Assembly (NCBI GenBank): GCA_019359435.1
Contig: JAHHHI010000097.1
Span: forward strand, 1-32,000
DNA from: Kaiparowitsia implicata GSE-PSE-MK54-09C
GTDB lineage: Bacteria; Cyanobacteriota; Cyanobacteriia; Elainellales; Elainellaceae
DNA: 32,000 nt
Direction of reading: 5' to 3'
Positions 1 to 20,609 of the stretch are shown here, one piece after another. Within the stretch, counting starts at the first letter, position 1. The number at the start of each line of letters is the position of its first letter. Both the position numbers and the translations under genes were made by a program. The notes beneath the pieces were generated by a model. It saw only the letters and a program-made list of their open reading frames with translations, did not search any database and was not told where the DNA came from.

Positions 1-119
1 CGGTCAAACGGCTGTGGATAAAACTGCATCGCTTCTGGATCAGAGAGGACTTCAAGTAAATCATCCACGTCATTGGGAGTCAATTCTCGCAAAATTAACC
101 GTTTAGTTTCCAACAACAT
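1..119 (-). CDS. GNAT-family N-acetyltransferase, N-terminal fragment (gene runs off the left edge)
   Basis: The reverse complement from ATG at 119-117 reads MLLETKRLILRELTPNDVDDLLEVLSDPEAMQFYPQPFD. This matches the usual RimJ/RimL-type GNAT N-terminus (xxRLxLRxLxxxDxxxLxxxxxDPEVxxY). Only 39 codons are visible. Confidence 0.5.
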   Translation of the reverse strand, partial: MLLETKRLILRELTPNDVDDLLEVLSDPEAMQFYPQPFD

Positions 120-231
120 ATTGCGATCGCCTCGCCAATAGCTCCAAAACGCCGCCTGCACGACAGCTCTACACCACCTTAACTTCAAGCACCAACAAGT
201 AAGCTTTCGGCTGCGCCCTCACCAACTAATC

Positions 232-326
232 AGCGGCATAACGTTCCCAATCACCCGCCGCAAGTAACCTTGAATTCTCACAGATCATTTGTAAACGGTC
301 GGGTGCATTGGGGTTGTTATGCCGCT
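232..326. repeat. attC-like imperfect palindrome between the GNAT fragment and brnA
   Basis: AGCGGCATAAC (232-242) is the exact reverse complement of GTTATGCCGCT (316-326). Inside these arms is a 3-nt G.T/T.T/T.G spacer (243-245 against 313-315). Next, 246-251 pairs with 307-312, C306 is bulged, and 252-257 pairs with 300-305. The loop is about 42 nt. The outer cores are one mismatch from the attC consensus RYYYAAC / GTTRRRY. Confidence 0.45.
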
Positions 327-363
327 TCAATCTTCGTTCTCATAGGCAATCTCAACCTGTCTG

Positions 364-639
364 TTATTGATGTGCCTCCATATACGCTCGTAGCAATTGA
401 TTGATCTGTGTCTGATAGCCTCGCCCTTGAGACTTGAACCACTCCAATACATCGCTATCAATGCGGAGTGTAACTTGAGCCTTGGCTTTTGTGGTAGGTA
501 AACCTCGTCGCACTACTGCTTTAGCAAACATTTCTGGTGTAATCTCTGGACAGTCTGACAAATCAATATCCTCATCACTCATTGCGTCTAATCGTTGCCA
601 ATCAGTTTGAGAGTTGCTCGAAGTAGGTTCGTTGTTCAT
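364..639 (-). CDS. brnA: BrnA-family antitoxin (RHH/CopG-like)
   Basis: I place the start at the internal ATG at 639 (MNNEPTSSNSQTDWQRLDAMSDEDIDLSDCPEITPEMF...VTLRIDSDVLEWFKSQGRGYQTQINQLLRAYMEAHQ). The DWxRLDAMxDEDID motif and the C-terminal LRID..vLeWFK..G.GYQt.IN..LR motif are typical of BrnA. The gene lies directly downstream of brnT and overlaps it. Confidence 0.85.
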   Translation of the reverse strand: MNNEPTSSNSQTDWQRLDAMSDEDIDLSDCPEITPEMFAKAVVRRGLPTTKAKAQVTLRIDSDVLEWFKSQGRGYQTQINQLLRAYMEAHQ

Positions 640-877
640 ATTTCGTCGCTTTTCTTGCAGAAAGAATACGAGTGCAATCCTCACGTTCTGTATGGACAAC
701 GGCAATCACTCGCCCTTGCAACAAACCGAATGTGACAAAACGCTGCTCTCCATAACTGTAACGATTGTCCTCAACCGTTAAGATATCGCCGTCAAATACG
801 GCTAGAACATCAACAAAATCGATGCCGTGTTTACGAAGATTAGCAAGACGTTTTGCTTCATCCCATTCATATTCCAT
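602..877 (-). CDS. brnT: BrnT-family toxin (DUF497 ribonuclease)
   Basis: 91 aa: MEYEWDEAKRLANLRKHGIDFVDVLAVFDGD...EQRFVTFGLLQGRVIAVVHTEREDCTRILSARKATKYE. This is the canonical DUF497/BrnT pattern (F/YEWDxxKxxxNxxKHGIxF ... ISARKAT). ATG at 877. Confidence 0.9.
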   Translation of the reverse strand: MEYEWDEAKRLANLRKHGIDFVDVLAVFDGDILTVEDNRYSYGEQRFVTFGLLQGRVIAVVHTEREDCTRILSARKATKYEQRTYFEQLSN

Positions 878-890
878 AACTGAACGACAG

Positions 891-909
891 CTACAATATC
901 TAATTGTAG
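891..909. promoter_or_regulatory. Palindrome CTACAAT-N5-ATTGTAG upstream of brnT, a candidate operator/-10 region
   Basis: A perfect 7-bp inverted repeat lies 14 nt upstream of the brnT ATG. A second arm pair flanks it: ACGACA at 884-889 and TGTCGT at 918-923. On the minus strand the palindrome contains TACAAT, which resembles a -10 box. No convincing -35 was found. Confidence 0.35.
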
Positions 910-1000
910 TTACAAATTGTCGTTACAACTACTATTCCAAGTAATTTTGATTGTGATTGTCCCACAAGTCACTTTAAGCTACTGTCTCAACCGAGGGCTT

Positions 1001-1025
1001 GCGGCATAACAACTTATTATGCCGC
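1001..1025. repeat. Short hairpin with the same GCGGCATAA/TTATGCCGC core as the attC-like element
   Basis: GCGGCATAA (1001-1009) pairs with TTATGCCGC (1017-1025) across a 7-nt loop. The core decamer is the one at 233-242 / 317-326, so the brnTA module is bracketed by this motif. Confidence 0.4.
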
Positions 1026-1028
1026 CAC

Positions 1029-1106
1029 TTTCCATATAACTACCCTATAAGGGGCAGTTATACCGACGGTTTCCGTATAATTCACCCTCTGTAGGCAGTT
1101 ATACGG
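1029..1106. repeat. Two tandem 37-nt imperfect-palindrome units (TTTCCRTATAAY...GGCAGTTATACSG), with a third half-site at 1153-1163
   Basis: The units at 1029-1065 and 1070-1106 share conserved ends. Each end pair is self-complementary: TATAAC/GTTATA in unit 1 and CCGTATAA/TTATACGG in unit 2. TTCCRTATAAY starts at 1030, 1071 and 1153, giving spacings of 41 and 82 bp. The block lies between brnT and the integrase fragment. Confidence 0.5.
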
Positions 1107-1232
1107 ATATTGGCTGCATACTATTTTTGCTGGGGGTAATTAACTAGAAATCTTCCGTATAACTTCAATAAAGCCAGAGGAACGCAAGCATGTACCATTG
1201 ATCACAATGCTGTTCTCCGTACAAACGTTGCC

Positions 1233-1418
1233 ATGGCATCTACCCCTAAGCTTTTGGACCAAGTTCGCCAGGTGCTTCGGGTCAGGCATTACTCTTATGA
1301 AACCGAGAAAACTTATGTCAACTGGATCAAACGATTTATAGCGTTTCATCAGATGAGGCTACCCAGGGAAATGGGTGCGATCGCAATCGTGAAGACTAGG
1401 GCAAACAGTAACAGGTAG
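1233..1418 (+). pseudogene. Truncated tyrosine recombinase: integron-integrase-like N-terminal SAM-like domain only
   Basis: MASTPKLLDQVRQVLRVRHYSYETEKTYVNWIKRFIAFHQMRLPREMG closely parallels the IntI N-terminus as I recall it for IntI1 ([42 protein letters not shown]). After about residue 50 the similarity ends, and a stop follows at codon 62. No catalytic domain is present in any frame downstream. Confidence 0.65.
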
Positions 1419-2199: not shown

Positions 2200-4470
2200 A
2201 TGACTGCTCAGTTCACTTCGTCTAACCCTGTTCAGGCTTCGCTTCCTGATGCGCTCAAGCACTACTTTGGCTATGACCGCTTTCGGCTGGGGCAGCAGTC
2301 AATTATTGAGGCGGCGTTAGCCGATCAAGACGTGCTGGTGATTATGCCCACCGGGGGCGGCAAGTCCATGTGTTTTCAGCTTCCGGCGCTGCTACGCAAA
2401 GGCGTGACGATGGTGGTGTCGCCGCTGATTGCGCTGATGCAGGATCAGGTGCAGGCGCTGGTCGACAATGGCATTGGGGCTACCTTTCTCAATAGCAGCA
2501 TTACTGGGCTTGAGGCGCAGCAACGGGAATCGAGCATTCTCAATGGTGATATCAAGCTGCTGTATGTGGCGCCTGAGCGGCTGTTGAGCGATCGCTTCAC
2601 TCCTTTTCTGAATCGGCTAAAGGCGACCGTGGGGCTGGCGGGGTTTGCCATCGACGAAGCCCATTGCGTCTCGGAATGGGGCCATGATTTTCGCCCAGAA
2701 TATCGACAACTGCGGAATTTGCGGCAGCGGTTTCCCGATACGCCGGTGATGGCGCTAACGGCCACCGCCACTGAGCGGGTGCGGCAGGATATTGTGCAGC
2801 AGTTGGCGCTGCGATCGCCCGTCGTTCACGTGGCGAGCTTCAATCGCCAAAACCTCTACTACGAGGTGCGGCCCAAATCGCGCAACTCCTATAGCGAACT
2901 GCTCGACCTCATGCGCCAAACGGATGGGTCGGGCATTGTCTACTGCCTGAGCCGCAAAAAAGTAGATGAGCTGGCAGCGCGGCTGCAACAGGATGGGGTG
3001 GCGGCGCTTCCCTATCATGCGGGGTTGAGCGATCGCGCCCGCAGTGAAAACCAAACCCGCTTCATCCGCGACGATGTGCGGGTTATGGTGGCGACCATTG
3101 CCTTTGGCATGGGCATCAACAAGCCCGATGTGCGGTTTGTGGCGCATTATGACTTGCCGCGATCGCTCGAAAACTATTACCAAGAAGCAGGACGTGCCGG
3201 ACGCGACAGCGAACCCGCCCGCTGCACGCTGTTCTATGGCTATGGCGATAGCAAAACCATTGAGTTCTTGATTGCTCAAAAGGTTGATCCGGCCACGGGG
3301 GAGCCGCTAGAAGAAGAGCAGCGAATTGCGCGGCAGCAGCTGCGGCAAGTGTTGGACTATGCCGAATCGCCGCACTGTCGGCGCACGATTCAGCTAAGCT
3401 ATTTTGGCGAGCGGTTTGACGGCAACTGCGGCAACTGCGACAACTGCATCAATCCCAAACCGGTGGAAGATTGGACGGTCGAAGCGCAGAAGTTTCTCTC
3501 CTGCGTGGCGCGGTGTGAGCAGCGGTTTGGCATGAAGCACATCATCGACGTGCTGCGCGGCTCGAAGGATCGCAAGGTCTTGCAGCGGGGGCATGATCGG
3601 CTCTCGACCTATGGCATTGGCAAAGACCGCACGGCGGATGCGTGGCGCACCCTGGGGCGATCGCTCCTGCATCAGGGCCTGCTGGAGGAAACCACCGATG
3701 GCTATCCGGTGCTGCGGCTCAATGCCCAAAGCTGGGCCGTGATGAAGGGACAGCAGGCGGTGCAGGTGGCCGTTGTGCCGCAGCAGCAAGATGCGCCTGA
3801 TCTGATGAGCGATCGCGCCAAAGCCGATGTGCAGATGCTGCTTGATCTGCTGCGATCGCTCCGCAAAACCCTGGCCGATGCCGAGTCGGTGCCGCCCTAC
3901 GTGATCTTTGCCGACTCTAGCCTGCAGCTCATGGCACGGCAGCAGCCGCAGACCCTTCGAGAGTTCTCGCGCATTTCGGGGGTGGGCACCTATAAGCGCA
4001 CGAAGTACGGGCCTCGGTTTGTAGACACGATTCGCGCCTTTTGCGAAGAGCAGGGGATTCCGCTGCAAGACGATGGGGACGAAGCCGTTGAGACGAGCAG
4101 CCCCACCCCACCCTCGGGAAAAGAATCGGGCGATCGCTCTGCCCTATCCCGCTCCTATTACGCCACGCTAGAACTGCATCAGCAAGCGCTCTCCCCCGAA
4201 GAGATTGCGGCGCAGCGCGGCCTCAGCAGCCGCACCATTTATGATCACCTCGAAAAGCTGATCGAAGCTGGAGAGGCGATCGCGCTCGATCAGCTGGTTC
4301 CTCCCGAAGACCAAACCGCAATTTGGCAAGCCATTGACGCTGTGGGGGATGGGTCGCTGCGCGTGATTCGCGATCATGTGAAAGAGGCCTATGAGTATGA
4401 GCCGATCCGGCTGGTGCGCGCCGCTTGGCGCAACGAGTCGAAAATAGACAAGACCACTGATCCGTTCTAA
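2200..4470 (+). CDS. recQ: ATP-dependent DNA helicase RecQ
   Basis: 756 aa. Motif I is PTGGGKSMCFQLPA and motif II is FAIDEAHCVSEWGHDFRPEY. ALTATAT is present. The Zn-binding cluster is CRR...CGNCDNC. An HRDC-like region is present (PPYVIFADSSLQLMARQQPQTLREFSRISGVG), followed by a C-terminal HTH-like extension. Confidence 0.97.
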   Translation: MTAQFTSSNPVQASLPDALKHYFGYDRFRLGQQSIIEAALADQDVLVIMPTGGGKSMCFQLPALLRKGVTMVVSPLIALMQDQVQALVDNGIGATFLNSSITGLEAQQRESSILNGDIKLLYVAPERLLSDRFTPFLNRLKATVGLAGFAIDEAHCVSEWGHDFRPEYRQLRNLRQRFPDTPVMALTATATERVRQDIVQQLALRSPVVHVASFNRQNLYYEVRPKSRNSYSELLDLMRQTDGSGIVYCLSRKKVDELAARLQQDGVAALPYHAGLSDRARSENQTRFIRDDVRVMVATIAFGMGINKPDVRFVAHYDLPRSLENYYQEAGRAGRDSEPARCTLFYGYGDSKTIEFLIAQKVDPATGEPLEEEQRIARQQLRQVLDYAESPHCRRTIQLSYFGERFDGNCGNCDNCINPKPVEDWTVEAQKFLSCVARCEQRFGMKHIIDVLRGSKDRKVLQRGHDRLSTYGIGKDRTADAWRTLGRSLLHQGLLEETTDGYPVLRLNAQSWAVMKGQQAVQVAVVPQQQDAPDLMSDRAKADVQMLLDLLRSLRKTLADAESVPPYVIFADSSLQLMARQQPQTLREFSRISGVGTYKRTKYGPRFVDTIRAFCEEQGIPLQDDGDEAVETSSPTPPSGKESGDRSALSRSYYATLELHQQALSPEEIAAQRGLSSRTIYDHLEKLIEAGEAIALDQLVPPEDQTAIWQAIDAVGDGSLRVIRDHVKEAYEYEPIRLVRAAWRNESKIDKTTDPF

Positions 4471-4899
4471 ATTTCTACAGCAACTTGCCTACAGCAACCG
4501 CTCCACTAAAGATTGGCAGATCTGGAAGGTTGGGGATAATGAGGGCAATTCATATCTACATTCCGCAACGCCCCGTTGCTTAGCCGCGAGGAGCAATCAC
4601 CCAGTCGTTCTCGATTTCCGCTATTTGATAAATGCTGGCTCTGATCTGCAAATCTTTCTCTGCAAATCGTTTATCAGGCTAATCCTTGCCACCTCGATAA
4701 TCTAAAAAATATCGTCTGGTGTAGGGTGGTGGTCGACATGCTGAAACTCTGGCAGTTGCACGATGAAGTTGTAGGGCGGTAGATAATCTTGAACTCAACA
4801 CCAAGCTCGTTCGCACCGACGCATTGTTTGGCTGTTTGGCAATCACTTACTTTGCATCAGGAAGCGTTTGGGTTTGTCAGCGGACTAGATTTGTGGATT

Positions 4900-6675
4900 T
4901 TAAGTTGTCAAGCAAGAACCTTCAAATGTCTCAGTTGGAATCCCCTGAATAGCCCTCCAGCAGGACTCCTTCTTGCACCATTCTGTAACATTACGACCAT
5001 CAGGTGGATTTGTGATTACTTGGTGGACTTCTCTCGAAATCATTTGAATTGCTTGTTGAAGCGACGGTGTAAGGCTTTGCTGCTTCCAGATCTTATCTAG
5101 ATCTACGTCTTGCTGAGTTTTATAGCTCAAGTATGCCAAGGTATAGGTCACAATATTTGCACGATAACCGCCAAACTTCTCACTCTGGACAATCTTCTCT
5201 GCACTTTTGAACAAAATAGCTTTGGCGATGAGGCGAGTAAAGTAGGTTTCGTCTGGCTCAGGGCGGCTCTTCTCTGTCAAGCCAACTGTGAACTTGGCAA
5301 AGTTTTTTTGGGCACCTAAACTGACGATATGAGGAAGCTGATCCCAAGTGTGTTCAAATTTTGCAAGATCGGTTTTGGTAAATTTTTGAGCATTCGGATG
5401 GGTAAGCGTGAAAGCTTTTTGCTTAGCAGGGGTGGATTCACGATTCTTGGCATCAGCGTACTGTCCCCGTGCCCGTTCATAAAACCACCGAGTTTGACGC
5501 TGAGTGCCATCAACGGCAGGTGCCCAAATAGTACGCGAGAGTTCTTCAACGCGAATGTGAAATGGGTCGTTGGCGGAGAAATCAGCTTCATTGACCTTAT
5601 TTTGGTTGTTGGCGTAGCGGGAAATCAGGGGCACGATTTCATCCATACGATCGCGATCCACTACAGTCAACTTGGTTTGGACGTAAATCCCAGAAATATC
5701 TGCTTTGTCTTTGCGAACGGCTTGATAGAGAGAAGCTGTAGTCTGACCACCATTCACAATCTGGAAATCACGAATTTCGGCAATCCCTTGTCCACCGTTG
5801 GGTAAATCGACAAGTTTCACTGTCTCAGCAGTTGCAGAAATGCCATTGTTGTAGGCAAGGAAACGGTGGGGTTCTTTCAAAATCGTTTGACGAATGCCTT
5901 TATTGACATTGCCTTTTGCTTGTAGAAAGGAGCGGACGTTGCGTTCCAGTAGTCTTGAGCCATATTCAGCGTAGATTTTGCAGAGAATTTCACCGGGAAT
6001 GATGGCAACATAAGCACGGTAATCTGCTTGGGATTCTGGCATGGCAAGGCAGGGAATAACAGAATCGTACTGGGCTTGAAAATTAATTTCGATCGCCTCT
6101 CGTTTTTGTCCTGATGTGACACAGCGATAAGTTCGGCGAAGATCCCAGATGTTATAGGAATAGTTGACTCCGTTTACGTCTTGACTTTTCTTGGTTTGTA
6201 GTGTGGTTAGTCCGTCGGTGAAGAGGAATAGACGTACATGGCTAAATTGGCTGCGCTGGCTGTGAATTAACTGTGCCATATCAAAGGTCGGAGAGGCTTC
6301 TTCGATCGATTGGTGATAGCCTTTGTGGACTTTGCTCAGAAAATTAATCAGTTGCTTAAAAGCACTTTCAACCGCATCCTTACGAACAGTAGTAGGACTA
6401 AGATTCTGATTATAAATGGAGATGAATAAATCGAGCCGCCCCTCTTCTTCTTGGAGATTGTAGCCGTTGACTTTAATACCACGGGCACTGTGATAGCAAA
6501 CGTGTCCATCTTCAAGTTCACCTGCTTCGGTCAAATACTCGATCATGAGGTGGGTAAAAGCTTCCTCTCGAAAGGAACCGCCCTCTTCCTCAGTCTGATT
6601 ACCCTCCGCATCGAAGATGACTTCCTGATGAAGATTTTCGACAAATCGGCCGAGTTCCAGATCATCATTGCTCAT
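4900..6675 (-). CDS. AIPR-family protein (abortive-infection phage-resistance family)
   Basis: I take the start at ATG 6675 (MSNDDLELGRF...), which overlaps the upstream stop as ATGA. The recognised family motifs are RFLAYNNGISATAETV and DFQIVNGGQTTASL. It is the last gene of the operon. Confidence 0.85.
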   Translation of the reverse strand: MSNDDLELGRFVENLHQEVIFDAEGNQTEEEGGSFREEAFTHLMIEYLTEAGELEDGHVCYHSARGIKVNGYNLQEEEGRLDLFISIYNQNLSPTTVRKDAVESAFKQLINFLSKVHKGYHQSIEEASPTFDMAQLIHSQRSQFSHVRLFLFTDGLTTLQTKKSQDVNGVNYSYNIWDLRRTYRCVTSGQKREAIEINFQAQYDSVIPCLAMPESQADYRAYVAIIPGEILCKIYAEYGSRLLERNVRSFLQAKGNVNKGIRQTILKEPHRFLAYNNGISATAETVKLVDLPNGGQGIAEIRDFQIVNGGQTTASLYQAVRKDKADISGIYVQTKLTVVDRDRMDEIVPLISRYANNQNKVNEADFSANDPFHIRVEELSRTIWAPAVDGTQRQTRWFYERARGQYADAKNRESTPAKQKAFTLTHPNAQKFTKTDLAKFEHTWDQLPHIVSLGAQKNFAKFTVGLTEKSRPEPDETYFTRLIAKAILFKSAEKIVQSEKFGGYRANIVTYTLAYLSYKTQQDVDLDKIWKQQSLTPSLQQAIQMISREVHQVITNPPDGRNVTEWCKKESCWRAIQGIPTETFEGSCLTT

Positions 6676-7679
6676 GGCTGATCTCCTATCAGCGCAATAG
6701 CTTCTGATTCTGGAATAGAGAAGCGTTTGCACTCAGCAACGCTGATGGTATAACGCACATCTCCTACGCCGTTGCGGAGATCAGATTCAATAATTTTGGG
6801 GAAGTCTGCTCCAACTTTGAAATAGTTATGCTCTCGAATGGTGTGGCCGATATTTTCATAGCGAGTCGCATGAATATCTAGATACCCGACTTCAAATAAA
6901 AGATTTTCTAATTCGTCTCTAGCGATCGCGTTACCCGAAACAAGCGATCGCACACTCGCAACTATCTCCGGTAGAGTCTCACCTTGGACTTGTCGCACAT
7001 CTAGCGATATATGGAGCAGCACAATCACCCCTGCGCCAGTATCATCCAGTTGTCGTTCGCTGGCGATTGCTAATTTCTGATGTTGCTTTGCACTGGTCGT
7101 TTTGACCTCAACCGCACATCGAGAAAACTGAAAATCCTGCTGAGTTCCTTTTGGACCAGTCCAACATCGGAGTCCATTGAACAAACCCAGATGTGGCAAA
7201 ATCACCTGCCTCAAAAACCACAGTTCTCCGTAAAGTCCCTGTTGAGCAATCTCACTTAGCCCTTCTGGTTGATTTGCCTTCAGAAATGCTTGCCATCGCC
7301 GTAGGCGCACGACAAATTCTTCTAGTCCAGTTTCCTCGGTTGGTTTTTCAGCAACGCCTGTGATCACGTCATCAACTAGCGCAGTAAAAATGTCAGAGTA
7401 ACGGCTCTGAGTTAAAGCAAGTTGGAGGGTCACATAATCCTGGCCATCGTCCGACAATTGTACTAACTGTATTTGAAAACCTTCAGATTTCGGGTATTCC
7501 CGAATAAATTCGGTAACTGTACGTCTTACTCTCAGTAGCAATGCTCGCGTCCCTTGCGGTTCTATTACAGCAATACGCAAATCGCACAGGGAGTTTGGTC
7601 TAACTCTTCGAGTTACATAGCCAGATCTATTTTGTTGAATAGTACGCTCAAGCTCACTCCAAAGTTCAGAAATGTTCAT
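6672..7679 (-). CDS. PD-(D/E)xK-motif protein (putative nuclease)
   Basis: 335 aa. The candidate catalytic core is ...GTQQDFQFSRCAVEVKTTSAK (D...E-V-K). The gene is coupled on both sides by ATGA overlaps (7676-7679 and 6672-6675). The fold assignment rests on the motif only. Confidence 0.7.
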   Translation of the reverse strand: MNISELWSELERTIQQNRSGYVTRRVRPNSLCDLRIAVIEPQGTRALLLRVRRTVTEFIREYPKSEGFQIQLVQLSDDGQDYVTLQLALTQSRYSDIFTALVDDVITGVAEKPTEETGLEEFVVRLRRWQAFLKANQPEGLSEIAQQGLYGELWFLRQVILPHLGLFNGLRCWTGPKGTQQDFQFSRCAVEVKTTSAKQHQKLAIASERQLDDTGAGVIVLLHISLDVRQVQGETLPEIVASVRSLVSGNAIARDELENLLFEVGYLDIHATRYENIGHTIREHNYFKVGADFPKIIESDLRNGVGDVRYTISVAECKRFSIPESEAIALIGDQP

Positions 7680-10429
7680 TCTTCATCTTCATCCCCAAAT
7701 TCTTCTGAGTAGTAAACGTTATTTACCCGATACTCCACGCTGCTCGCATTTGTGCTGCTGGGAAAGCTAATTGCAAATCCTAAAATCGGTGGTTCCAGCG
7801 ACCATCCAGCATCTTCTGGATCAAGAGGATAAATGAGGAGAAGTCCTCTATCAGAAGATCGCTCTCGTCTAAAAGGATTACTTGGCTCACCATCTACAAC
7901 CTGATTTCGTGATGTACTGTCTTGTCTCGTTTCTTCTCGTATTCGCCGTCTGACCTCTTCTGGTAGATCAATACTTTCATCTGCTGGACTAACTAACCTT
8001 TTAATCGAATATCGGTCAGCACTGCTAGCTGTTGATTTAGTGCGCTTATATAAACCGACTCTACACCCATTAATATGTACATATTTTGGGGTTTCATCTG
8101 ACTTGAAGATTCTTTTAGACTTCAGTACAACTGTCCAACTTCTTAACTCACTTTTCGCAAGTTGAGCACTAATATATTCTGCCAAAAGTCTACTATTAGC
8201 TCTTAAAGAGTCGCGATGAGTTTCTATACTTCTTAAAAGTCTTACAATGTCGCTACCAGGTATATCTCTCCAGACATATGCATCCCCCGAAGTTACAGTC
8301 GGAGCAACAGCAGGTTCACCACATTCTGTGAAAAATTGTGCAAATTTTTCCAAATTTTTCTGGTTTCTTGTAGGGTCTTTATAAAAGGCAACAGTCTCAC
8401 TGATTGAGCCAGAATAGGATACTTGTAATGTTTTCCCATCTCTGATCTTGCCCACACTAGAAATAGCAAGTCCTGCAGGATGTGTCCTAACTTTCAATCC
8501 AAATTCAGCAGGAGTTTTATCCAACATTGCCATATAGTCAAATTCTTGTCGTAACTCCTCGCTGGCGATAGTAATATGCTCGTACCACTCCACCAATTCA
8601 CTTGTTGTGTACAATCGGCAAAGATCGAGGTACTTTGGTCGATATCCGAACCATCGTCCCATTTGCATCAGCGTGTCATACATCTTGGAAGCTCGAAGAT
8701 AATAGCTAACAGTCAAGCCGTTAAGAGTTAGTCCACGAGATAATTTGTTGCCACCAATTGCAATAACATTAAGACCATCAGGATTGTCTATATAATCTAA
8801 AAGTTCTTTAGCTTTACCATTGATAACTCTAACCTGAATTTTTTGAGCGGCTGCCTCTAAATAAGCTCTAATTTCCTGCCAATTAACTTTCGGAGTATCA
8901 GGGTCGTCAATAGCTTCAGAAGTTGGCACAAAATCATCATTCCAAAGCCTTTCAAATTCCGATAAAAGTTTATCAGAAGCTTCACCATCGCCATAGCGTA
9001 GCCGACGTTGTAAGTGCTGCACTTCGCGATTAATCTGCGTTTTAACTTTGTTCTGTACTTCCGTGAAGCGAGTAACATGAATCAACATTGAGTTATGTTC
9101 TCGCCCCTGTCCTCTCGCCATTCTTGTGGCACAGGAAATGATAAAAGAGTTAAGGGCTTTTTTTAGAGAAATTGGTAGTGATCCAGGCACGTAGTCCGTC
9201 TTATGTTTATCAGCTACCCAATCTTCATAATCTTCGATATAGCGGATTACAGGCAAACTGTCTTGCGCTTCCAGCCCAGCTTCAGGGTCAGCAGCCAGAC
9301 CAAAAAAGCGTACTGGACCAACATAGTTGTCTGGAGCAGGAAGATTTACAATGAAGTCCCGTGGAAAAAGCTCATCACCATGTTGATCTGTTCTGGTATT
9401 TAGATTGATAAAAATATTGGCAAAAGGTGTCGCTGTATAGCCAACGTAAGAACTTTGAGCAAAGCTGTGTAGTAGCTCTCGAATTCTTGCATTGATGGTC
9501 GTTGGGTTTGCATCTTCATCTCTTGTGTTGATGGAAGCGTTATCGCATTCATCATCAATTAATAACAAGGGAACATCGTGAATAATTATACGTCCATTTT
9601 GTGAATCTCTTTCTCCATATCTTCCAGTTAGCCAACGGTTAAGATTGCTGAGAATTGATCCGTTCTTCTTGACGACCAACAGTAATGGAACAGAACTCAA
9701 GTCAATACTAGAGTGTTTTGCGATCGTAAGCTTGAAATCCCCTTTCTCCTCACTATGGGTGAGTGACTGAACAGGATGCAGCTTTTCTCCTTTGAGAGCA
9801 CCTACTCCAACTCGAAGATTACTCTGATCAAATGTCATCCGATGCCGTGTATTGTAGCCAAGAAAACCTTCATCTAGCCGAATTTGGGTTTGGCTCCGCA
9901 AGTCATTGTGCATTCCTGCTAAAACAACGATTAACCGATAGCCTGCATCTGCTGCTTTGCAAATTAAACCAGTATAGTTTGCCGTTTTTCCTGACTGAAC
10001 TTGACCAGCTACCATACCACGCCGATCCCAACTGCCATTGCGAGTTGGGTTTTCAAGTCTCTCAAGAACTTTATCCGTGAGTTCGTCAACTCGCCGAATA
10101 ATCCGAGGTGACCAATTTTCTTCTTCAAGTAGATAGCGCTCATATCGTTTCCAGAAGCGCCACTCAATATTGTCACGGCGTTCCGGCAACCAATCTCTAC
10201 GATCCTTACTTTCCAGGATAGTACCTGTTCCAATCCTGACATTAAATCGGCTTTGGAGATCCCAGACAAGCCCTGCGACATCGATATTTTCAGGATCACC
10301 CTGAAGCGCCACCATCTTGATCGCAAGCTCAACTGTTGACCGAATCAGATCGTCGGTAACGTCATCATTGCGCTTCAGCATTGACAGCGCAAAATCAAGT
10401 GCCTGCTCGTATTCGTGCGAGTTGCTCAT
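7676..10429 (-). CDS. Z1-domain P-loop NTPase (helicase-like)
   Basis: I take the start at ATG 10429 (MSNSHEYEQALDF...), which overlaps the upstream stop as ATGA. Walker A is GQVQSGKTANYTG and Walker B is LLLIDDECDNAS. GYTATPFAN is present. The Z1 signatures are IAIGGNKLSRGLTLNGL and MQMGRWFGYRP. Confidence 0.85.
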   Translation of the reverse strand: MSNSHEYEQALDFALSMLKRNDDVTDDLIRSTVELAIKMVALQGDPENIDVAGLVWDLQSRFNVRIGTGTILESKDRRDWLPERRDNIEWRFWKRYERYLLEEENWSPRIIRRVDELTDKVLERLENPTRNGSWDRRGMVAGQVQSGKTANYTGLICKAADAGYRLIVVLAGMHNDLRSQTQIRLDEGFLGYNTRHRMTFDQSNLRVGVGALKGEKLHPVQSLTHSEEKGDFKLTIAKHSSIDLSSVPLLLVVKKNGSILSNLNRWLTGRYGERDSQNGRIIIHDVPLLLIDDECDNASINTRDEDANPTTINARIRELLHSFAQSSYVGYTATPFANIFINLNTRTDQHGDELFPRDFIVNLPAPDNYVGPVRFFGLAADPEAGLEAQDSLPVIRYIEDYEDWVADKHKTDYVPGSLPISLKKALNSFIISCATRMARGQGREHNSMLIHVTRFTEVQNKVKTQINREVQHLQRRLRYGDGEASDKLLSEFERLWNDDFVPTSEAIDDPDTPKVNWQEIRAYLEAAAQKIQVRVINGKAKELLDYIDNPDGLNVIAIGGNKLSRGLTLNGLTVSYYLRASKMYDTLMQMGRWFGYRPKYLDLCRLYTTSELVEWYEHITIASEELRQEFDYMAMLDKTPAEFGLKVRTHPAGLAISSVGKIRDGKTLQVSYSGSISETVAFYKDPTRNQKNLEKFAQFFTECGEPAVAPTVTSGDAYVWRDIPGSDIVRLLRSIETHRDSLRANSRLLAEYISAQLAKSELRSWTVVLKSKRIFKSDETPKYVHINGCRVGLYKRTKSTASSADRYSIKRLVSPADESIDLPEEVRRRIREETRQDSTSRNQVVDGEPSNPFRRERSSDRGLLLIYPLDPEDAGWSLEPPILGFAISFPSSTNASSVEYRVNNVYYSEEFGDEDEE

Positions 10430-12012
10430 CTGTCCTCCTGCTTTTGGTATTGCTCCAGTACAACAGCAATCAAATCTTGATGATTTTGGAAGGGTTCCAT
10501 GCTTGACAGACGACTCCTTGCATCTTTGAAGTCCCACCCATTCTTGAGTAAAGTGTCAAGAACCTGAGTAATAACTTTTAATAACTCTTCAGTATTGACT
10601 CCTTCAAACGGTTGAGCTTGGGCATAAGGGTGCTCTGAGTTATCCACTATGATTAGCGGCACTGGAACCGTTTCTTCAATTATGCTTAAGAGAGCCTTAA
10701 GTGTTGGAGCGAGATCTGCTGATTGACTCAAAACAGCCTCTAACATTGGATGTTTTTGATTAAGACTGTAGAAGGTTTTTCCGTGCTTTACCTTCTGCTC
10801 CCAAAGATATGAGTAGTTGGTAGGGGTTTGCCTTGCAACCACCTTTCCTCGGTGTCTATATATTTCTGTAGCTCTCTTACGAGTCAAACCTGCTATGCGT
10901 TTCAGATCAGCCTTTAACAATGCGGGTGGACGCGCCCTTGACTTTTTGATATCGATATTCCAATCACTATCCATTGAATTCGGCAGATCTACTTGAATTC
11001 GTGCCAGTTTACAGTGTTCATCCTTGCGATATCCCCCCAAGCCCAACCAATCACCAGCAACCAGCAGGCGTTCATTGCGATACACATAAAAACCCTGTTG
11101 AGCATTCCAACCATTTAATCCTGCTGCTTTGTTGTAGGTGTCAGGGTCAATTTTGGAATGGTGCGGTAAGACATAAGGCTGAACCCGAACCGTTTCACCC
11201 TTAAAAGTAAGGGGTTCCAGAGGCAAAATCTGAGTCGCTTGAGCATCAAGTAGAAATGGATTCCAGGGTTCAATACGGTGATGATTGATCCAGAGTTTGA
11301 GGCGATCGCGCTTTTCTAAAAAACGATGAAATACCATTGCCAGGTGGTTTTCTACAACTTCAACCGTTTCAAGAAAATCATCTTGAGCTTTCTGGTCGTC
11401 TGTTTTTGCTGTACCTACAATCCGATCCAAGCATTCCCACAGTACAATCGTGCCATAAGGCATAATTTCCAAGTCATTCAATTTCTGGGCTGAACCTTCC
11501 GCAGGAGTATGAAGCAGCCTCCACTCGTCAACCTGGTTGACGTAATCTAGATCCCATCGCCTGATAGCAACCGCATGATCTTTTGAGCGCGAGGCGACTG
11601 TCAACCGTCGACATTGAGAGAAAGAGGCTGTCTTCAGTCCCAAGCCGAATCGCCCCAAGTCGTCTGGGTCTCTTTCCTCCAAAGGATGCTGGCTACCTGG
11701 ACGCATTGCACTGATCAGTTGCGCTTCCGTCATGCCATGTCCATCATCCCGAATAGAAATATAGGAGTTAGCACCATCCCAACAAAAGCTCAGCCAGATA
11801 TTGCGTGCTTTAGCCGTAATACTGTTATCTATAAGATCTGCGATAGCAGTCTGAACATTGTAGCCAAAAGCACGTAGAGACTCTATCATCGCCGAAGCAC
11901 GAGGTTCAGCAATGTCGTACATAGATTTAGGTATATCGTTGGTGTTTAGACCCATGATTGAAGGCTGGGCTGGCGTTGACCAAATTGTAACTTCACTCTC
12001 TACAGAGAGCAT
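10426..12012 (-). CDS. GHKL/Bergerat-fold ATPase (HATPase_c_3, MutL/MORC-like)
   Basis: The N-box is ADLIDNSITA, the G1 box is IRDDGHGMT and the G2 box is GRFGLGLKTAS. The start is uncertain. The track start at 12036 is a TTG. I chose ATG 12012 (MLSVESEV...), which is preceded by AAGAG. The ATG giving MGLNTND... is also possible. Confidence 0.85.
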   Translation of the reverse strand: MLSVESEVTIWSTPAQPSIMGLNTNDIPKSMYDIAEPRASAMIESLRAFGYNVQTAIADLIDNSITAKARNIWLSFCWDGANSYISIRDDGHGMTEAQLISAMRPGSQHPLEERDPDDLGRFGLGLKTASFSQCRRLTVASRSKDHAVAIRRWDLDYVNQVDEWRLLHTPAEGSAQKLNDLEIMPYGTIVLWECLDRIVGTAKTDDQKAQDDFLETVEVVENHLAMVFHRFLEKRDRLKLWINHHRIEPWNPFLLDAQATQILPLEPLTFKGETVRVQPYVLPHHSKIDPDTYNKAAGLNGWNAQQGFYVYRNERLLVAGDWLGLGGYRKDEHCKLARIQVDLPNSMDSDWNIDIKKSRARPPALLKADLKRIAGLTRKRATEIYRHRGKVVARQTPTNYSYLWEQKVKHGKTFYSLNQKHPMLEAVLSQSADLAPTLKALLSIIEETVPVPLIIVDNSEHPYAQAQPFEGVNTEELLKVITQVLDTLLKNGWDFKDARSRLSSMEPFQNHQDLIAVVLEQYQKQEDR

Positions 12013-12047
12013 AGCTCTTAATTTAGGTTGCCCCAAAACGAGTGAAA

Positions 12048-13259
12048 TCAGCAGATTTTCTGCTCCTTTCGGTAGGATTGGATCAACTGGACTAGAGGCT
12101 TAGCAACTGCCTCTGCAAGAAGAGGTGGTACAGAGTTGCCCACCAATTCAAACATCCGGGTCATCGGAGCATAAAAAACAAAATCGTCAGGAAAGCTTTG
12201 AAGCCTAGCAGCTTCACGAACAGAGATACTGCGATTTTGTAGAGGATGAATGTATGCCAGACCGTCTTTTCTCATGTGAGCAGTCAAAGTCCAAGCTGGC
12301 TCATTCCAAATTAAACGCTTATATTTGTCATCAAAAATATCAACTCGATACCGCATCATCTCTTTAGGTATGTCCCTATATTTTCCACCTTGATCTAACA
12401 TTTCAAAAATCATAATGTCCTTGTCATTATGAGAACGGCAAAGATGATTCCATACCCCTTCACCTTCCTTCTTACGCTTCCTCATTTTTTTTTGATAAGG
12501 CGACTGAGGTGGACATTTGTAAGGGCACTCCGCATCTTTCTGTTTTGGCCCAGAAGATTTGGTCTTGAGGGGCATAACGAAAGGCTGTAGATCAGGAAGA
12601 TCACAGATCGCCTCACCAACTGATATGGGACTTTGTACTCGCTGGCTAGGAAAAGGCGGATCAATTTCCAGATCAGAACGAATCCCCACTATAAAAAGCC
12701 TCATTCTTTTTTGAGGCACACCAAACTTGGAAGAATCTAATACTCGATAATCAACTTTATATCCAGGATAATTCTCTTGCTTGTTACGGCTGAAATCTTG
12801 GCAAATTCTCAACAGCTTTTTTTGTCTGTTGGCCAAAAAATCAACATTTTCCATTACAAAGCACAGAGGCTGATAATGAGAAACAAATCTTACAAACTGC
12901 TCATACAAAAAATTTCTATGGTCGGATTCTATATCTCTACCAAGCTTTCGCATTTTGCCAATGCCAACCCGTGAGAAAACTTGACAGGGTGGTCCACCCA
13001 CTAAAATATCTACTTCGCCAGGATTCAATCCCAGCTGATCAAGATTACAAAGACTACAGATATCTTGAGAGGGTAGCTTCAGCTTGGCAGTGGGAAAATT
13101 TTGATGATGAGTAGCGATTGCATAATGATTTTGATCAATTCCACCTAATATCTGACACCCAGCATTCTCGAATCCTAAGCTCATCCCCCCTGCCCCGCAA
13201 AAAATATCGAGTACAGTAGGTTTAATTTTTCGGCTGGCTCTTTCCTCGGTCGTCTGCAT
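12048..13259 (-). CDS. DNA (cytosine-5)-methyltransferase
   Basis: All diagnostic C5-MTase motifs are present. Motif I is DIFCGAGGMSLGF, IV is GGPPCQVFS, VI is FVMENV, VIII is QKRMRLFIVG, IX is SVREAARLQSFPDDF and X is GNSVPP. A long lysine-rich variable region lies between VIII and IX. It is the first gene of the operon. Confidence 0.95.
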   Translation of the reverse strand: MQTTEERASRKIKPTVLDIFCGAGGMSLGFENAGCQILGGIDQNHYAIATHHQNFPTAKLKLPSQDICSLCNLDQLGLNPGEVDILVGGPPCQVFSRVGIGKMRKLGRDIESDHRNFLYEQFVRFVSHYQPLCFVMENVDFLANRQKKLLRICQDFSRNKQENYPGYKVDYRVLDSSKFGVPQKRMRLFIVGIRSDLEIDPPFPSQRVQSPISVGEAICDLPDLQPFVMPLKTKSSGPKQKDAECPYKCPPQSPYQKKMRKRKKEGEGVWNHLCRSHNDKDIMIFEMLDQGGKYRDIPKEMMRYRVDIFDDKYKRLIWNEPAWTLTAHMRKDGLAYIHPLQNRSISVREAARLQSFPDDFVFYAPMTRMFELVGNSVPPLLAEAVAKPLVQLIQSYRKEQKIC

Positions 13260-18890: not shown

Positions 18891-20609
18891 ATGGTCGTAG
18901 CAGCAGAACGTAAACAAGCTCGACTCACGTTACAAACGTTAGAGGTTGCAGCAGAGACCACCGCCATCCGATCGCTCGATTGGGATCGGGATCGCTTTGA
19001 CATTGAGTTTCCGCTCGAAAACGGGACGACCTACAACTCATTTTTGATTCGCGGCGAGAAGGTAGCGCTGGTTGATACCGCTCACGAAAAGTTTCGCCAC
19101 CTCTATCTGGATTGCCTGACTGGGTTGATTGATCCCCAGTCGATCGATTATTTAGTAATCAGCCATACTGAGCCTGACCACAGCGGTTTAGTTAAGGATG
19201 TGCTGGAGCTAAATCCTGATATCACGGTTGTGGGCGCAAAGATTGCGCTGCAATTCTTAGACGAATTAGTGCATCGCCCTTATTCGCGCCGGGTGGTGAA
19301 GCAGGGCGATCGCCTCGACTTGGGCAAGGGGCACGAGTTAGAGTTTATCTCTGCGCCCAACCTGCACTGGCCCGACACCATCTTTACCTACGACCACGGC
19401 ACTCAGGTGCTCTACACCTGCGATGCCTTTGGGATGCACTTTTGCGACAACCACAGCTACGACCTGGATCTGCCCGTCATTGAAGCAGACTATCGGATCT
19501 ACTACGACTGCCTGATGGGGCCTAACGCCCGCTCGGTGCTATCAGCGCTGAAGCGACTGTCGAACCTGCCGCAGATTGATCTAGTTGCCACGGGCCATGG
19601 GCCGCTGCTGCGCCACAATATCGAGGAGTTGATGGGGCGCTACCGCGATTGGAGCACCGCCAAGGCCAAAGCAGAAACCCTAGTAGCGCTGTTTTATGCG
19701 GCTGACTATGGCAACAGCACGGCGCTGGCGGAGGCGATCGCCCGAGGCATTGCCAAAACCGGAGTGGCGGTGGAAATGGTTGACCTGCTCATTGCCGATC
19801 CCCAAGAGGTTCGGGTGCTCGTGGATATTGCAGCGGGCTTGGTCATTGGGATGCCGCCGCAATTCTCTAAAGAAATTCAGGCATTGCTCAGCACCATTCT
19901 GGCAACCAGCCATGCCAAGCAGGCGGTGGGCCTGTTCGAGAGCGGAGGTGAGGATGACGAATCGGTCTATCCCCTGCGCAACAAGTTTCAAGAAATCGGT
20001 GCGACGGAATCGTTTGCTCCCATTTTGCTGAAGGAAGCGCCCACGGATGCGCTGTACCAACTGTGTGAAGAAGCGGGTACTGACTTGGGCCAATGGCTGA
20101 CGCGCGATCGCACCGTCAAGCACATGAAGTCCCTGAATACGGATTTGGACAAAGCGCTGGGGCGGCTGAGCGGTGGGCTTTACATTATCACAGCGAAAAA
20201 AGGCGATGTGGCTAGCGCCATGTTGGCCTCTTGGGTGTCGCAGGCCAGCATGGAGCCCTTGGGCATTAGCATTGCCGTCGCCAAGGACCGCGCCATTGAG
20301 TCGCTGATGCATGTGGGCGATCGCTTCGTTCTCAATGTGTTGGAGGAAGGCAACTATCAAAGCCTGATGCGGCACTTCCTCAAGCGCTTTCCTCCTGGGG
20401 CAGACCGCTTTGCGGGCATCAAAACCTACCCCGCCACCCACGGGTCGCCGATTCTGGCCGATGCCCTCGCATATTTGGAATGTGAAGTGGTGAGCCGCAT
20501 GGAGTGCTCGGATCACTATGTGGTCTATAGCACGGTGGATACGGGGCGCGTCTCTAAGCCCGACTCGCTCACGGCTGTTCACCATCGCAAAGTGGGGAAC
20601 CATTACTAA
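18891..20609 (+). CDS. Class-C flavodiiron protein with canonical di-iron ligands (Flv3/Flv4 type)
   Basis: 572 aa. The metallo-beta-lactamase-like domain has ISHTEPDHSG (H-x-E-x-D-H), NLHWPD, CDAFG and TGHGP. A flavodoxin-like domain and a C-terminal flavin-reductase domain (LSGGLYIITAKKGD...) follow. GGAGGTG lies upstream of the ATG. Confidence 0.92.
   Translation: MVVAAERKQARLTLQTLEVAAETTAIRSLDWDRDRFDIEFPLENGTTYNSFLIRGEKVALVDTAHEKFRHLYLDCLTGLIDPQSIDYLVISHTEPDHSGLVKDVLELNPDITVVGAKIALQFLDELVHRPYSRRVVKQGDRLDLGKGHELEFISAPNLHWPDTIFTYDHGTQVLYTCDAFGMHFCDNHSYDLDLPVIEADYRIYYDCLMGPNARSVLSALKRLSNLPQIDLVATGHGPLLRHNIEELMGRYRDWSTAKAKAETLVALFYAADYGNSTALAEAIARGIAKTGVAVEMVDLLIADPQEVRVLVDIAAGLVIGMPPQFSKEIQALLSTILATSHAKQAVGLFESGGEDDESVYPLRNKFQEIGATESFAPILLKEAPTDALYQLCEEAGTDLGQWLTRDRTVKHMKSLNTDLDKALGRLSGGLYIITAKKGDVASAMLASWVSQASMEPLGISIAVAKDRAIESLMHVGDRFVLNVLEEGNYQSLMRHFLKRFPPGADRFAGIKTYPATHGSPILADALAYLECEVVSRMECSDHYVVYSTVDTGRVSKPDSLTAVHHRKVGNHY

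Follow-up and report, generated by a model that had tools for sequence, protein, structure and literature searches.

The left end of the DNA analysed here, a stretch of 32,000 nucleotides from Kaiparowitsia implicata GSE-PSE-MK54-09C (contig JAHHHI010000097.1, positions 1 to 32,000; the whole stretch is called the window hereafter), is very probably the platform end of an integron of the chromosomal type, with its integrase gene, intI, destroyed. From left to right, this end comprises the start of a GNAT acetyltransferase gene, a palindrome at 232-326, the brnA and brnT genes, a tandem 13-mer at 902-927, a pair of motifs at 1001-1025, a stretch rich in repeats and a 61-codon open reading frame (ORF) holding what remains of intI. 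The intI remnant lies on the plus strand and is divergent from brnT, brnA and the GNAT gene; these three, each with a Pfam match, are all on the minus strand, as an earlier note made from the sequence alone had proposed. The same note had read the locus as a decayed chromosomal integron, and three checks favoured this interpretation: the match of the palindrome to an attC covariance model, the nature of the full-length relatives of the ORF, and the position of the motif GCGGCATAAC at the boundaries of the cassettes. The identities of the parts, the exact cassette boundaries, the attC structure and the truncation of intI are established by the comparisons given below. The locus is not a complete integron, as the IntI-specific domain and the catalytic domain of the integrase gene are both gone from the 32 kb.

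The intI remnant occupies 1233-1378 on the plus strand, corresponding to codons 1-48 plus two nucleotides, and the open frame continues to 1418. In Pfam the 61-aa product of 1233-1418 matched Phage_int_SAM_4 (E 1.2e-13), while its best NCBIfam match was TIGR02249, "integron integrase", at profile positions 1-46 of 315 (E 4.6e-11); the two NCBIfam models that matched the ORF are both named "integron integrase". The similarity of the relatives stops at base 1378, and the last 13 codons are unrelated read-through, so that the suggestion of a truncated IntI N-terminus was borne out. The window splits from all five aligned relatives after GGGTGC at 1378, a departure point that falls within an octamer of the highly iterated palindrome HIP1 (GCGATCGC, 1377-1384). 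A tblastn search of the 32 kb with eight full-length IntI proteins revealed no further IntI pieces, nothing being left beyond residue 49. The 61-aa protein P0001 of Kaiparowitsia implicata has an identical tail past the break, and therefore the deletion is common to that species and not brand new. Over the 48 kept codons the ratio of nonsynonymous to synonymous substitution rates (dN/dS) was 0.04-0.63, from few sites; these values suggest that the codons were under mostly purifying selection until recently, the sites being too few for more.

Our first database search with the 61-aa ORF returned 28 homologues, all of them short (38-107 aa) and mostly from Leptolyngbya-like cyanobacteria. Inspection of their sequences and loci identified them as fragments of disrupted genes, truncated in various ways. 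Nodosilinea sp. FACHB-13 (L002) has the remainder of intI further on in other frames, with the HxxR...Y catalytic region and the IntI-specific patch among it. In Nodosilinea sp. FACHB-131 (L004), the nearest broken copy with 87% DNA identity, the two halves of the gene score 223 and 203 bits on TIGR02249, and the second half matches profile positions 197-235, which constitute the IntI-specific patch and lie outside the coverage of the XerC/D models. A scan with one genome per species yielded 571 intI relatives, the best 80 of which were taken as intI-anchored loci; these 80 are mostly full-length genes of 314-330 aa. Four full-length relatives, three cyanobacterial and one deltaproteobacterial, scored 459-473 bits on TIGR02249 (cutoff 265) and are true integron integrases. 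Because TIGR02249 is the best model for the fragment, its kin among the pseudogenes keep the IntI patch and the full-length relatives pass the cutoff, the fragment is, by sequence, assigned to the IntI family and not to the Xer or phage integrases. The intI gene is broken in all 13 close cyanobacterial relatives of the platform, by lesions that differ from one to another. Pseudogenes carrying a frameshift, an in-frame stop, an internal deletion or a truncation were seen at L001-L007, L042, L051, L059, L084 and L085, and intact intI genes only in more distant cyanobacterial loci (L024, L028, L052, L058, L064, L074 and L138).

The region between the cassettes and intI (1010-1232) was recognized as attI and the upstream region of intI by its conservation as a platform and by its repeats. 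In blastn comparisons, window positions 999-1378 were 87-89% identical in DNA sequence to L001-L004 (Nodosilinea group) and 72% identical to L007, and these loci had no match in the window outside 999-1378. The intI remnant itself (1233-1378) shares 90-93% nucleotide identity with L001-L004. The blastn homology begins at 999-1007. Six aligned sequences share TAAC|AACTTATTATGCCGAC onward (AACTTATT, with AACTT after TAAC) and are unrelated to the left of TAAC; accordingly, the 86% identity to L001-L004 over 1011-1232 gives way to 17-45% in the first 40 nt left of the junction. The homologous block is thus limited by the cassette junction on its left and by the deletion on its right. The flanks of the platform are syntenic in L001-L004, with 86-90% identity, but the one gene that lies between the junction and a conserved gene for an ABC transporter is different in each: a 242-aa ORF in L001, a DUF6714 gene in L002, an astacin gene in L003 and a gene for a 532-aa repeat protein in L004. 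A fixed platform combined with a swappable insert matches the organization of integrons, and the recombination point falls where the conserved platform gives way to variable cassettes, as in an attI site.

The simple site of attI spans 1001-1025 and consists of an R box (GTTATGCCGC, minus strand, 1010->1001), a 5-nt spacer (1011-1015) and an L box (ATTATGCCGC, 1016-1025), with the crossover between G1010 and T1009 of the minus strand. The R-box half (1001-1010, GCGGCATAAC) is derived from the cassette and stands opposite the conserved L box (1016-1025, ATTATGCCGC). The recurrence of the palindrome core at 1001-1025 had been noticed earlier; the motif is indeed there, although it is not a second attC site, being the attI simple site, half of which came with the cassette. 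A stretch of 140 nt rich in TTCCGTATAAC-like repeats lies between this core and the intI ORF. The motif TTCCRTATAAY is found in it at 1030-1040, 1071-1081 and 1153-1163 (three matches vs 0.12 expected by chance) and the inverted motif AGTTATACSGA at 1056-1066 and 1097-1107, the first two direct/inverted pairs forming two 41-bp tandem units. In the minus-strand reading, the L/R core with its R box GTTATGC has three direct GTTATACGG-like copies upstream of it; we infer that these repeated motifs may serve as accessory IntI-binding sites. A conserved block at 1185-1232 is placed directly ahead of the intI start. It was considered as a LexA box, and the idea was dropped as by eye the block does not fit the cyanobacterial consensus RGTACNNNDGTWCB. 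The promoter and terminator scan gave nothing useful.

Cassette 1 runs from 1009 to 242 on the minus strand and in its 768 nt contains a putative promoter/operator region of its own, brnT, brnA and an attC site. The brnT toxin gene (877->602, 91 aa) matches Pfam BrnT_toxin (PF04365, E 6.6e-27, 94.1 bits) and the brnA antitoxin gene (639->364, 91 aa) matches BrnA_antitoxin (PF14384, E 5e-20, 72.1 bits), both above the cutoff; brnA overlaps the 3' end of brnT by 38 nt. Adjacent genes with these two domains identify a BrnTA type II toxin-antitoxin pair. About 120 nt lie upstream of brnT, and a tandem 13-nt repeat (AATTGTAGTTACA / AATTGTCGTTACA, 902-927), located 25 nt upstream of the brnT start, is kept in the copy of the cassette in L169. 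This repeat is likely an autoregulatory operator bound by BrnA and carried within the cassette, and the pair is probably expressed and regulated from its own upstream region. As an addiction module, brnTA may help to retain the array.

The limits of cassette 1 were obtained by comparison with copies of it in other arrays. Related brnTA cassettes with 82-87% DNA identity over the whole cassette are present in other cyanobacterial arrays, where L130 and L115 match only window positions 249-1010 and L169-L171 match 299-1010. At the 5' end, all copies of the brnTA cassette start with GTTATGCCGCAAGTCCTCGG, which is preceded by attI in the window, by a related attI in both L090 and L094, and in L130, L100 and L113 by the attC of the cassette before it. 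Towards the 3' end, the attC is common to the copies as far as GTTA of the GTTATGC box, after which they diverge. As the homology stops at both predicted crossovers (G1010|T1009 and G242|T241), cassette 1 is delimited as 1009->242, 768 nt; cassettes are thus discrete mobile units bounded at G|TT. This comparison also answered the question whether GCGGCATAAC is merely dispersed, since the motif marks both boundaries of the cassette. A metagenome scan for BrnT gave 80 loci, and among the BrnT-anchored loci the attC-model matches were on the expected strand in 45 of 46. In L138 a full-length intI is followed by six or seven attC sites, the count varying with model and threshold, and then by brnT at the end of the contig. 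The BrnA protein is 100% identical in L169-L171, within an array that has 11 attC sites in L169, and among the 80 intI-anchored loci brnT homologues were found in the arrays of four unrelated integrons (L018, L076, L009 and L046).

Two of these arrays showed further peculiarities. L130 (1-2032) has seven attC matches in 2 kb, some of them about 260 nt apart, and its cassettes other than brnTA are very short or empty. In L169, a block of about 2.9 kb is tandemly duplicated (816-2950 and 3762-5896) inside a large cyanobacterial attC array; it contains a 357-aa ORF, a GIY-YIG gene, a 68-aa ORF and a 111-aa ORF together with their attC sites.

Cassette 2 is partial (241->1, minus strand). It starts with TTATGCCGCT at 241->232, the crossover lying in the R' box of the attC site, and in L130, L115 and L169 the homology to the window ends in or beside this box. 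Its predicted ORF is the GNAT acetyltransferase gene, the 5' part of which (119->1, minus strand, start codon 119-117, 39 codons) runs off the left edge of the window; the 39 N-terminal residues match Acetyltransf_3 at profile positions 1-32 (E 1.4e-6, 29.5 bits, cutoff 25.4).

The imperfect palindrome of 95 nt at 232-326, which the earlier note had described as attC-like, proved to be a true attC by its fold and by a covariance model from which it had been held out. A repeat search delimited outer arms of 20 nt. Folded as single-stranded DNA, 232-326 reached -27.8 kcal/mol, whereas 200 shuffled sequences gave -11.3 +/- 2.3 (z = -7.24). The two boxes, read on the minus strand, are GCATAAC for R'' (322->316) and GTTATGC for R' (242->236), with the crossover between G242 and T241. 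The outer stem of 12 bp includes these two boxes, and it is followed by a central bubble (244-245 / 313-314; 2 nt in the minimum-free-energy fold, 3 nt in the centroid structure), an L stem (246-260 / 296-312) made of 6 bp, a bulged C306, 6 bp, a bulged T299 and 3 bp, and a variable terminal structure (VTS) of 35 nt (261-295). The site therefore has the R''/R' boxes, the central spacer, the L stem with extrahelical bases on the R''-L'' arm and the VTS of an attC. A distance of 6 bp separates the extrahelical bases T299 and C306, both on the 3' arm of the plus strand; the base after AAC is G, which is also the case in most attC sites (PMC2727003). Known attC features are extrahelical bases on the R''-L'' arm, a T located 6-8 nt from the first of them, and a G after the AAC of R' (Bouvier et al., PMC2727003). 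The bulges on the 3' arm of the plus strand and the G after AAC therefore identify the plus strand as the recombinogenic bottom strand and the minus strand as the top, on which the cassettes are read; this agrees with the direction of brnTA and of the GNAT gene.

Cassettes in cyanobacterial loci are adjoined by six similar sites with a core-to-core length of 87-93 nt, the copy in L005 having been found via blastn, and when these sites were aligned with that of the window compensatory changes appeared in 11 of 22 pairs. A first covariance model was built from these seven sites, including that of the window; at E < 0.01 it gave 22 non-training matches, of which all but one (L059), hence 21, lay upstream of intI on the strand expected, and they include matches in an acidobacterial array (L016) and a gammaproteobacterial one (L040). 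For a second model five other cyanobacterial sites were used, leaving out the window site and one site that had been chosen by its likeness to it. This held-out model matched the window at 230-328 with 51.2 bits (E about 1e-11), gave 7.1 bits on the opposite strand and, at its next best place in the 32 kb, 17.4 bits, so that a single attC site was counted in the window. The 17.4-bit match, at 4760-4827, was taken as chance since the TAAC/GTTA cores are missing. An initial attC scan, based on AAC...GTT spacing and fold energy, was replaced by the covariance models as it called GC-rich coding hairpins and its enrichment was weak (68 upstream vs 39 downstream).

In the family to which this site belongs, the bulged base proximal to the R box is C in 51 of 53 aligned sites and a T lies 6 bp away in 47 of 53, a count that is skewed towards C as the collecting model was built from C-type sites. 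The column next to the bulged C pairs with the 5' arm in 45 of the 53 sites and covaries (34 C-G, 9 G-C), which confirms C as the bulged base.

These features can be joined in a very probable history. The intI gene would originally have read rightwards from 1233, with its promoter and attI contained in the 220 bp to its left. IntI would have inserted circular cassettes by recombining the double-stranded attI with the folded bottom strand (here the plus strand) of the cassette attC, the crossover occurring within the GTTATGC box, after its G and before TT. Two insertions of this kind would be visible: that of cassette 1, with brnT-brnA, and that of cassette 2, with the GNAT gene, which extends past the left edge. 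A later deletion, ending in the HIP1 octamer at 1377-1384, would have taken intI from codon 49 on. With intI lost the array is no longer rearranged in cis and is therefore frozen unless an IntI acts in trans; we infer that no other integrase does so.

Four observations weigh against this interpretation. Only one attC lies within the window, any array further left being beyond it. A sigma-70-like cassette promoter was absent from the minus strand of 1000-1400 in a crude consensus scan, from which cyanobacterial promoters may differ. The R boxes GCATAAC/GTTATGC deviate from the strict RYYYAAC/GTTRRRY consensus at one position. Finally, the R-proximal extrahelical base is C, vs the G described as conserved in PMC2727003; in that study, changing the conserved G to C caused only a 2.7-fold loss.

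The alternative that deserves most attention is that the array is not a fossil: an intact integrase elsewhere in the genome could shuffle the cassettes in trans, in which case the locus would be a functional satellite array resembling a cluster of attC sites lacking an integron integrase (CALIN). The intact attC structure and the retention of all the attI repeats speak for it, as do the intact IntI genes of related cyanobacteria (L024, L028, L058, L064, L074 and L138) and the frequent co-occurrence of CALINs with complete integrons (PMC4889954). However, a second intI is absent from the 32-kb window, intI is broken in 13 of 13 close relatives of the platform, and the same deletion in Kaiparowitsia implicata indicates that the arrangement has therefore been stable for some time; we regard a shuffled array as unlikely.

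The remaining alternatives deny the integron itself, and we give both of them very little credence. One would make the palindrome at 232-326 and GCGGCATAAC a generic dispersed cyanobacterial repeat, similar to a miniature inverted-repeat transposable element (MITE) or a repetitive extragenic palindrome (REP), beside a toxin-antitoxin pair, its likeness to an integron being coincidental. Short palindromic repeats such as HIP1 are abundant in cyanobacterial genomes, and the window has 60 copies of HIP1. Nevertheless, exact GCGGCATAAC occurs in the 32 kb only at the two cassette boundaries (at 233, at 316 as the reverse complement, and at 1001), with a one-mismatch copy at 1016 in reverse complement, the remaining one-mismatch matches being three and scattered. 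In addition, the attC model found no second convincing copy in the window, its matches across about 1.1 Mb of related loci are limited to one strand and to the cassette side of intI, and the stems vary by compensatory change instead of being conserved in sequence. The other would see in the 61-codon ORF what is left of an ordinary integrase of the phage or XerC/D type, or else a small independent protein with a SAM-like domain, unrelated in either case to its neighbours. It draws on Pfam, which gives the ORF only the generic "phage integrase N-terminal SAM-like" domain, and on the shortness of all 28 homologues found first. Against this stand the two integron-integrase models of NCBIfam, the nature of the short homologues as differently truncated pseudogene pieces whose loci retain the catalytic half and the IntI patch, and the sequence after codon 48, which is unrelated to that of any relative; such an origin is accordingly as improbable as that of a dispersed repeat.

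Having weighed these alternatives, we return to the decayed integron and to where its platform came from. The flavodiiron protein encoded at 18891-20606 has Leptolyngbya sp. AN02str as its best named relative (86%), and no named Nodosilinea was found among its top 120 matches (all with at least 73% identity). The 87-89% DNA identity of the platform to loci of the Nodosilinea group, set against a flavodiiron protein without a named Nodosilinea relative among those matches, suggests, indirectly since names are given for only part of the database entries, that the platform may have moved horizontally between genera; the platform of L007, also labelled Nodosilinea, is only 72% identical to that of the window. 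The independent inactivation of intI in 13 of 13 close relatives might reflect recurrent selection against an active integrase after its arrival. It is conceivable, though we would not call it probable, that a C as the strand-selecting, R-proximal extrahelical base of attC, a platform moved between distant genera and the integrase independently inactivated in all 13 close relatives mark a distinct integron lineage of filamentous cyanobacteria.

Regarding the composition of the window, the 60 HIP1 copies have a mean spacing of 533 bp. The earlier note had pointed to a HIP1-free stretch at the locus; the absence is real, extending for 1254 bp between the copies at 123-130 and 1377-1384, while its distinctiveness is not, as it ranks sixth by size among 59 gaps. 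The gap is statistically ordinary and by itself is no evidence. The G+C content is 0.44 at the locus vs 0.53 in the whole window and about 0.57 in its HIP1-rich parts. A search of the window for tRNA genes found none, and an Rfam scan of 1-2200 gave only chance sub-threshold matches to microRNA and small RNA families, with no attC match.

To the right of the remnant, a small ORF at 1604-1888 (94 codons, unannotated) was considered as a homologue of the 92-aa ORF downstream of the Nodosilinea intI and rejected, as BLASTP similarity was nil; it has no Pfam match. Just past it, a perfect hairpin at 1918-1963 is centred on a HIP1 site (GAGAGGGAGTAGG twice, GCGATCGC, then CCTACTCCCTCT) and may be a terminator or a repeat element. 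Further away, a HIP1-poor block of low G+C (0.39-0.47) at 4900-13259 carries five co-oriented genes on the minus strand, encoding an AIPR protein (4900-6732), a DUF4420 PD-(D/E)XK protein (6672-7679), a 953-aa Z1-domain protein (7676-10537), a HATPase_c_3 protein (10426-12036) and a C5 cytosine DNA methylase (12048-13259); the block resembles a defence island linked to a methylase and gained by horizontal transfer.

As for known systems, the brnTA pair, judged by its sequence, resembles other BrnT/BrnA type II systems (PF04365/PF14384) in that both domains are full, the toxin gene comes first and the genes overlap, and it differs from the ordinary ones in being packed as an integron cassette with its own attC. 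The attI1 site of class 1 integrons consists of a simple site plus the direct repeats DR1 and DR2. The attI described here shares with attI1 the inverted L/R core, the crossover in GTT and the extra R-box-like copies upstream in direct orientation; unlike attI1, it has five accessory copies, three direct and two inverted, four of which form two 41-bp tandem units while the fifth stands alone, and the motif of these putative IntI-binding sites is GTTATACGG-like.

Integrons in Cyanobacteria have already been documented (PMC4889954, PMC2426708, PMC8352920), and a cyanobacterial attC covariance model already exists (PMC8352920). The locus is most similar in its parts to sedentary chromosomal integrons with a decayed intI, such as those of Xanthomonas (PMC2426708): intI and the array are divergent with attI between them, compact genes each have an attC, the attC sites are homogeneous within the lineage, and the integrase is knocked out by independent lesions in close genomes. 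It departs from the Xanthomonas type in having a filamentous cyanobacterium as its host, in retaining no more than 48 codons of intI and in the R-proximal extrahelical base of attC, which is C, not G. With CALINs, described in 2016 (PMC4889954) and defined by at least two attC sites without an integron integrase nearby (the window shows one), it shares attC cassettes that lack a functional integrase alongside, and loss of intI is listed as one route to a CALIN (PMC4889954); unlike 95% of CALINs, it keeps a recognizable intI remnant and a complete attI. A detector of intI keyed to the C-terminal IntI-specific domain, the approach in PMC4889954, should miss the 48-codon stump.

In summary, this decayed integron was recognizable from bare sequence, where standard pipelines would probably miss the locus because the C-terminal signature of the integrase is missing and a lone attC site is discarded as a possible false positive (PMC4889954). 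It provides an exactly delimited cyanobacterial brnTA cassette (768 nt) and an attI with mapped repeats that are usable for testing recombination by a cyanobacterial IntI. The locus is one more case of an already known type of element and leaves the knowledge of integrons unchanged; about one third of known intI genes are pseudogenes (Nemergut et al., PMC2426708), and the stump described here adds one more example to this pattern of frequent intI loss.

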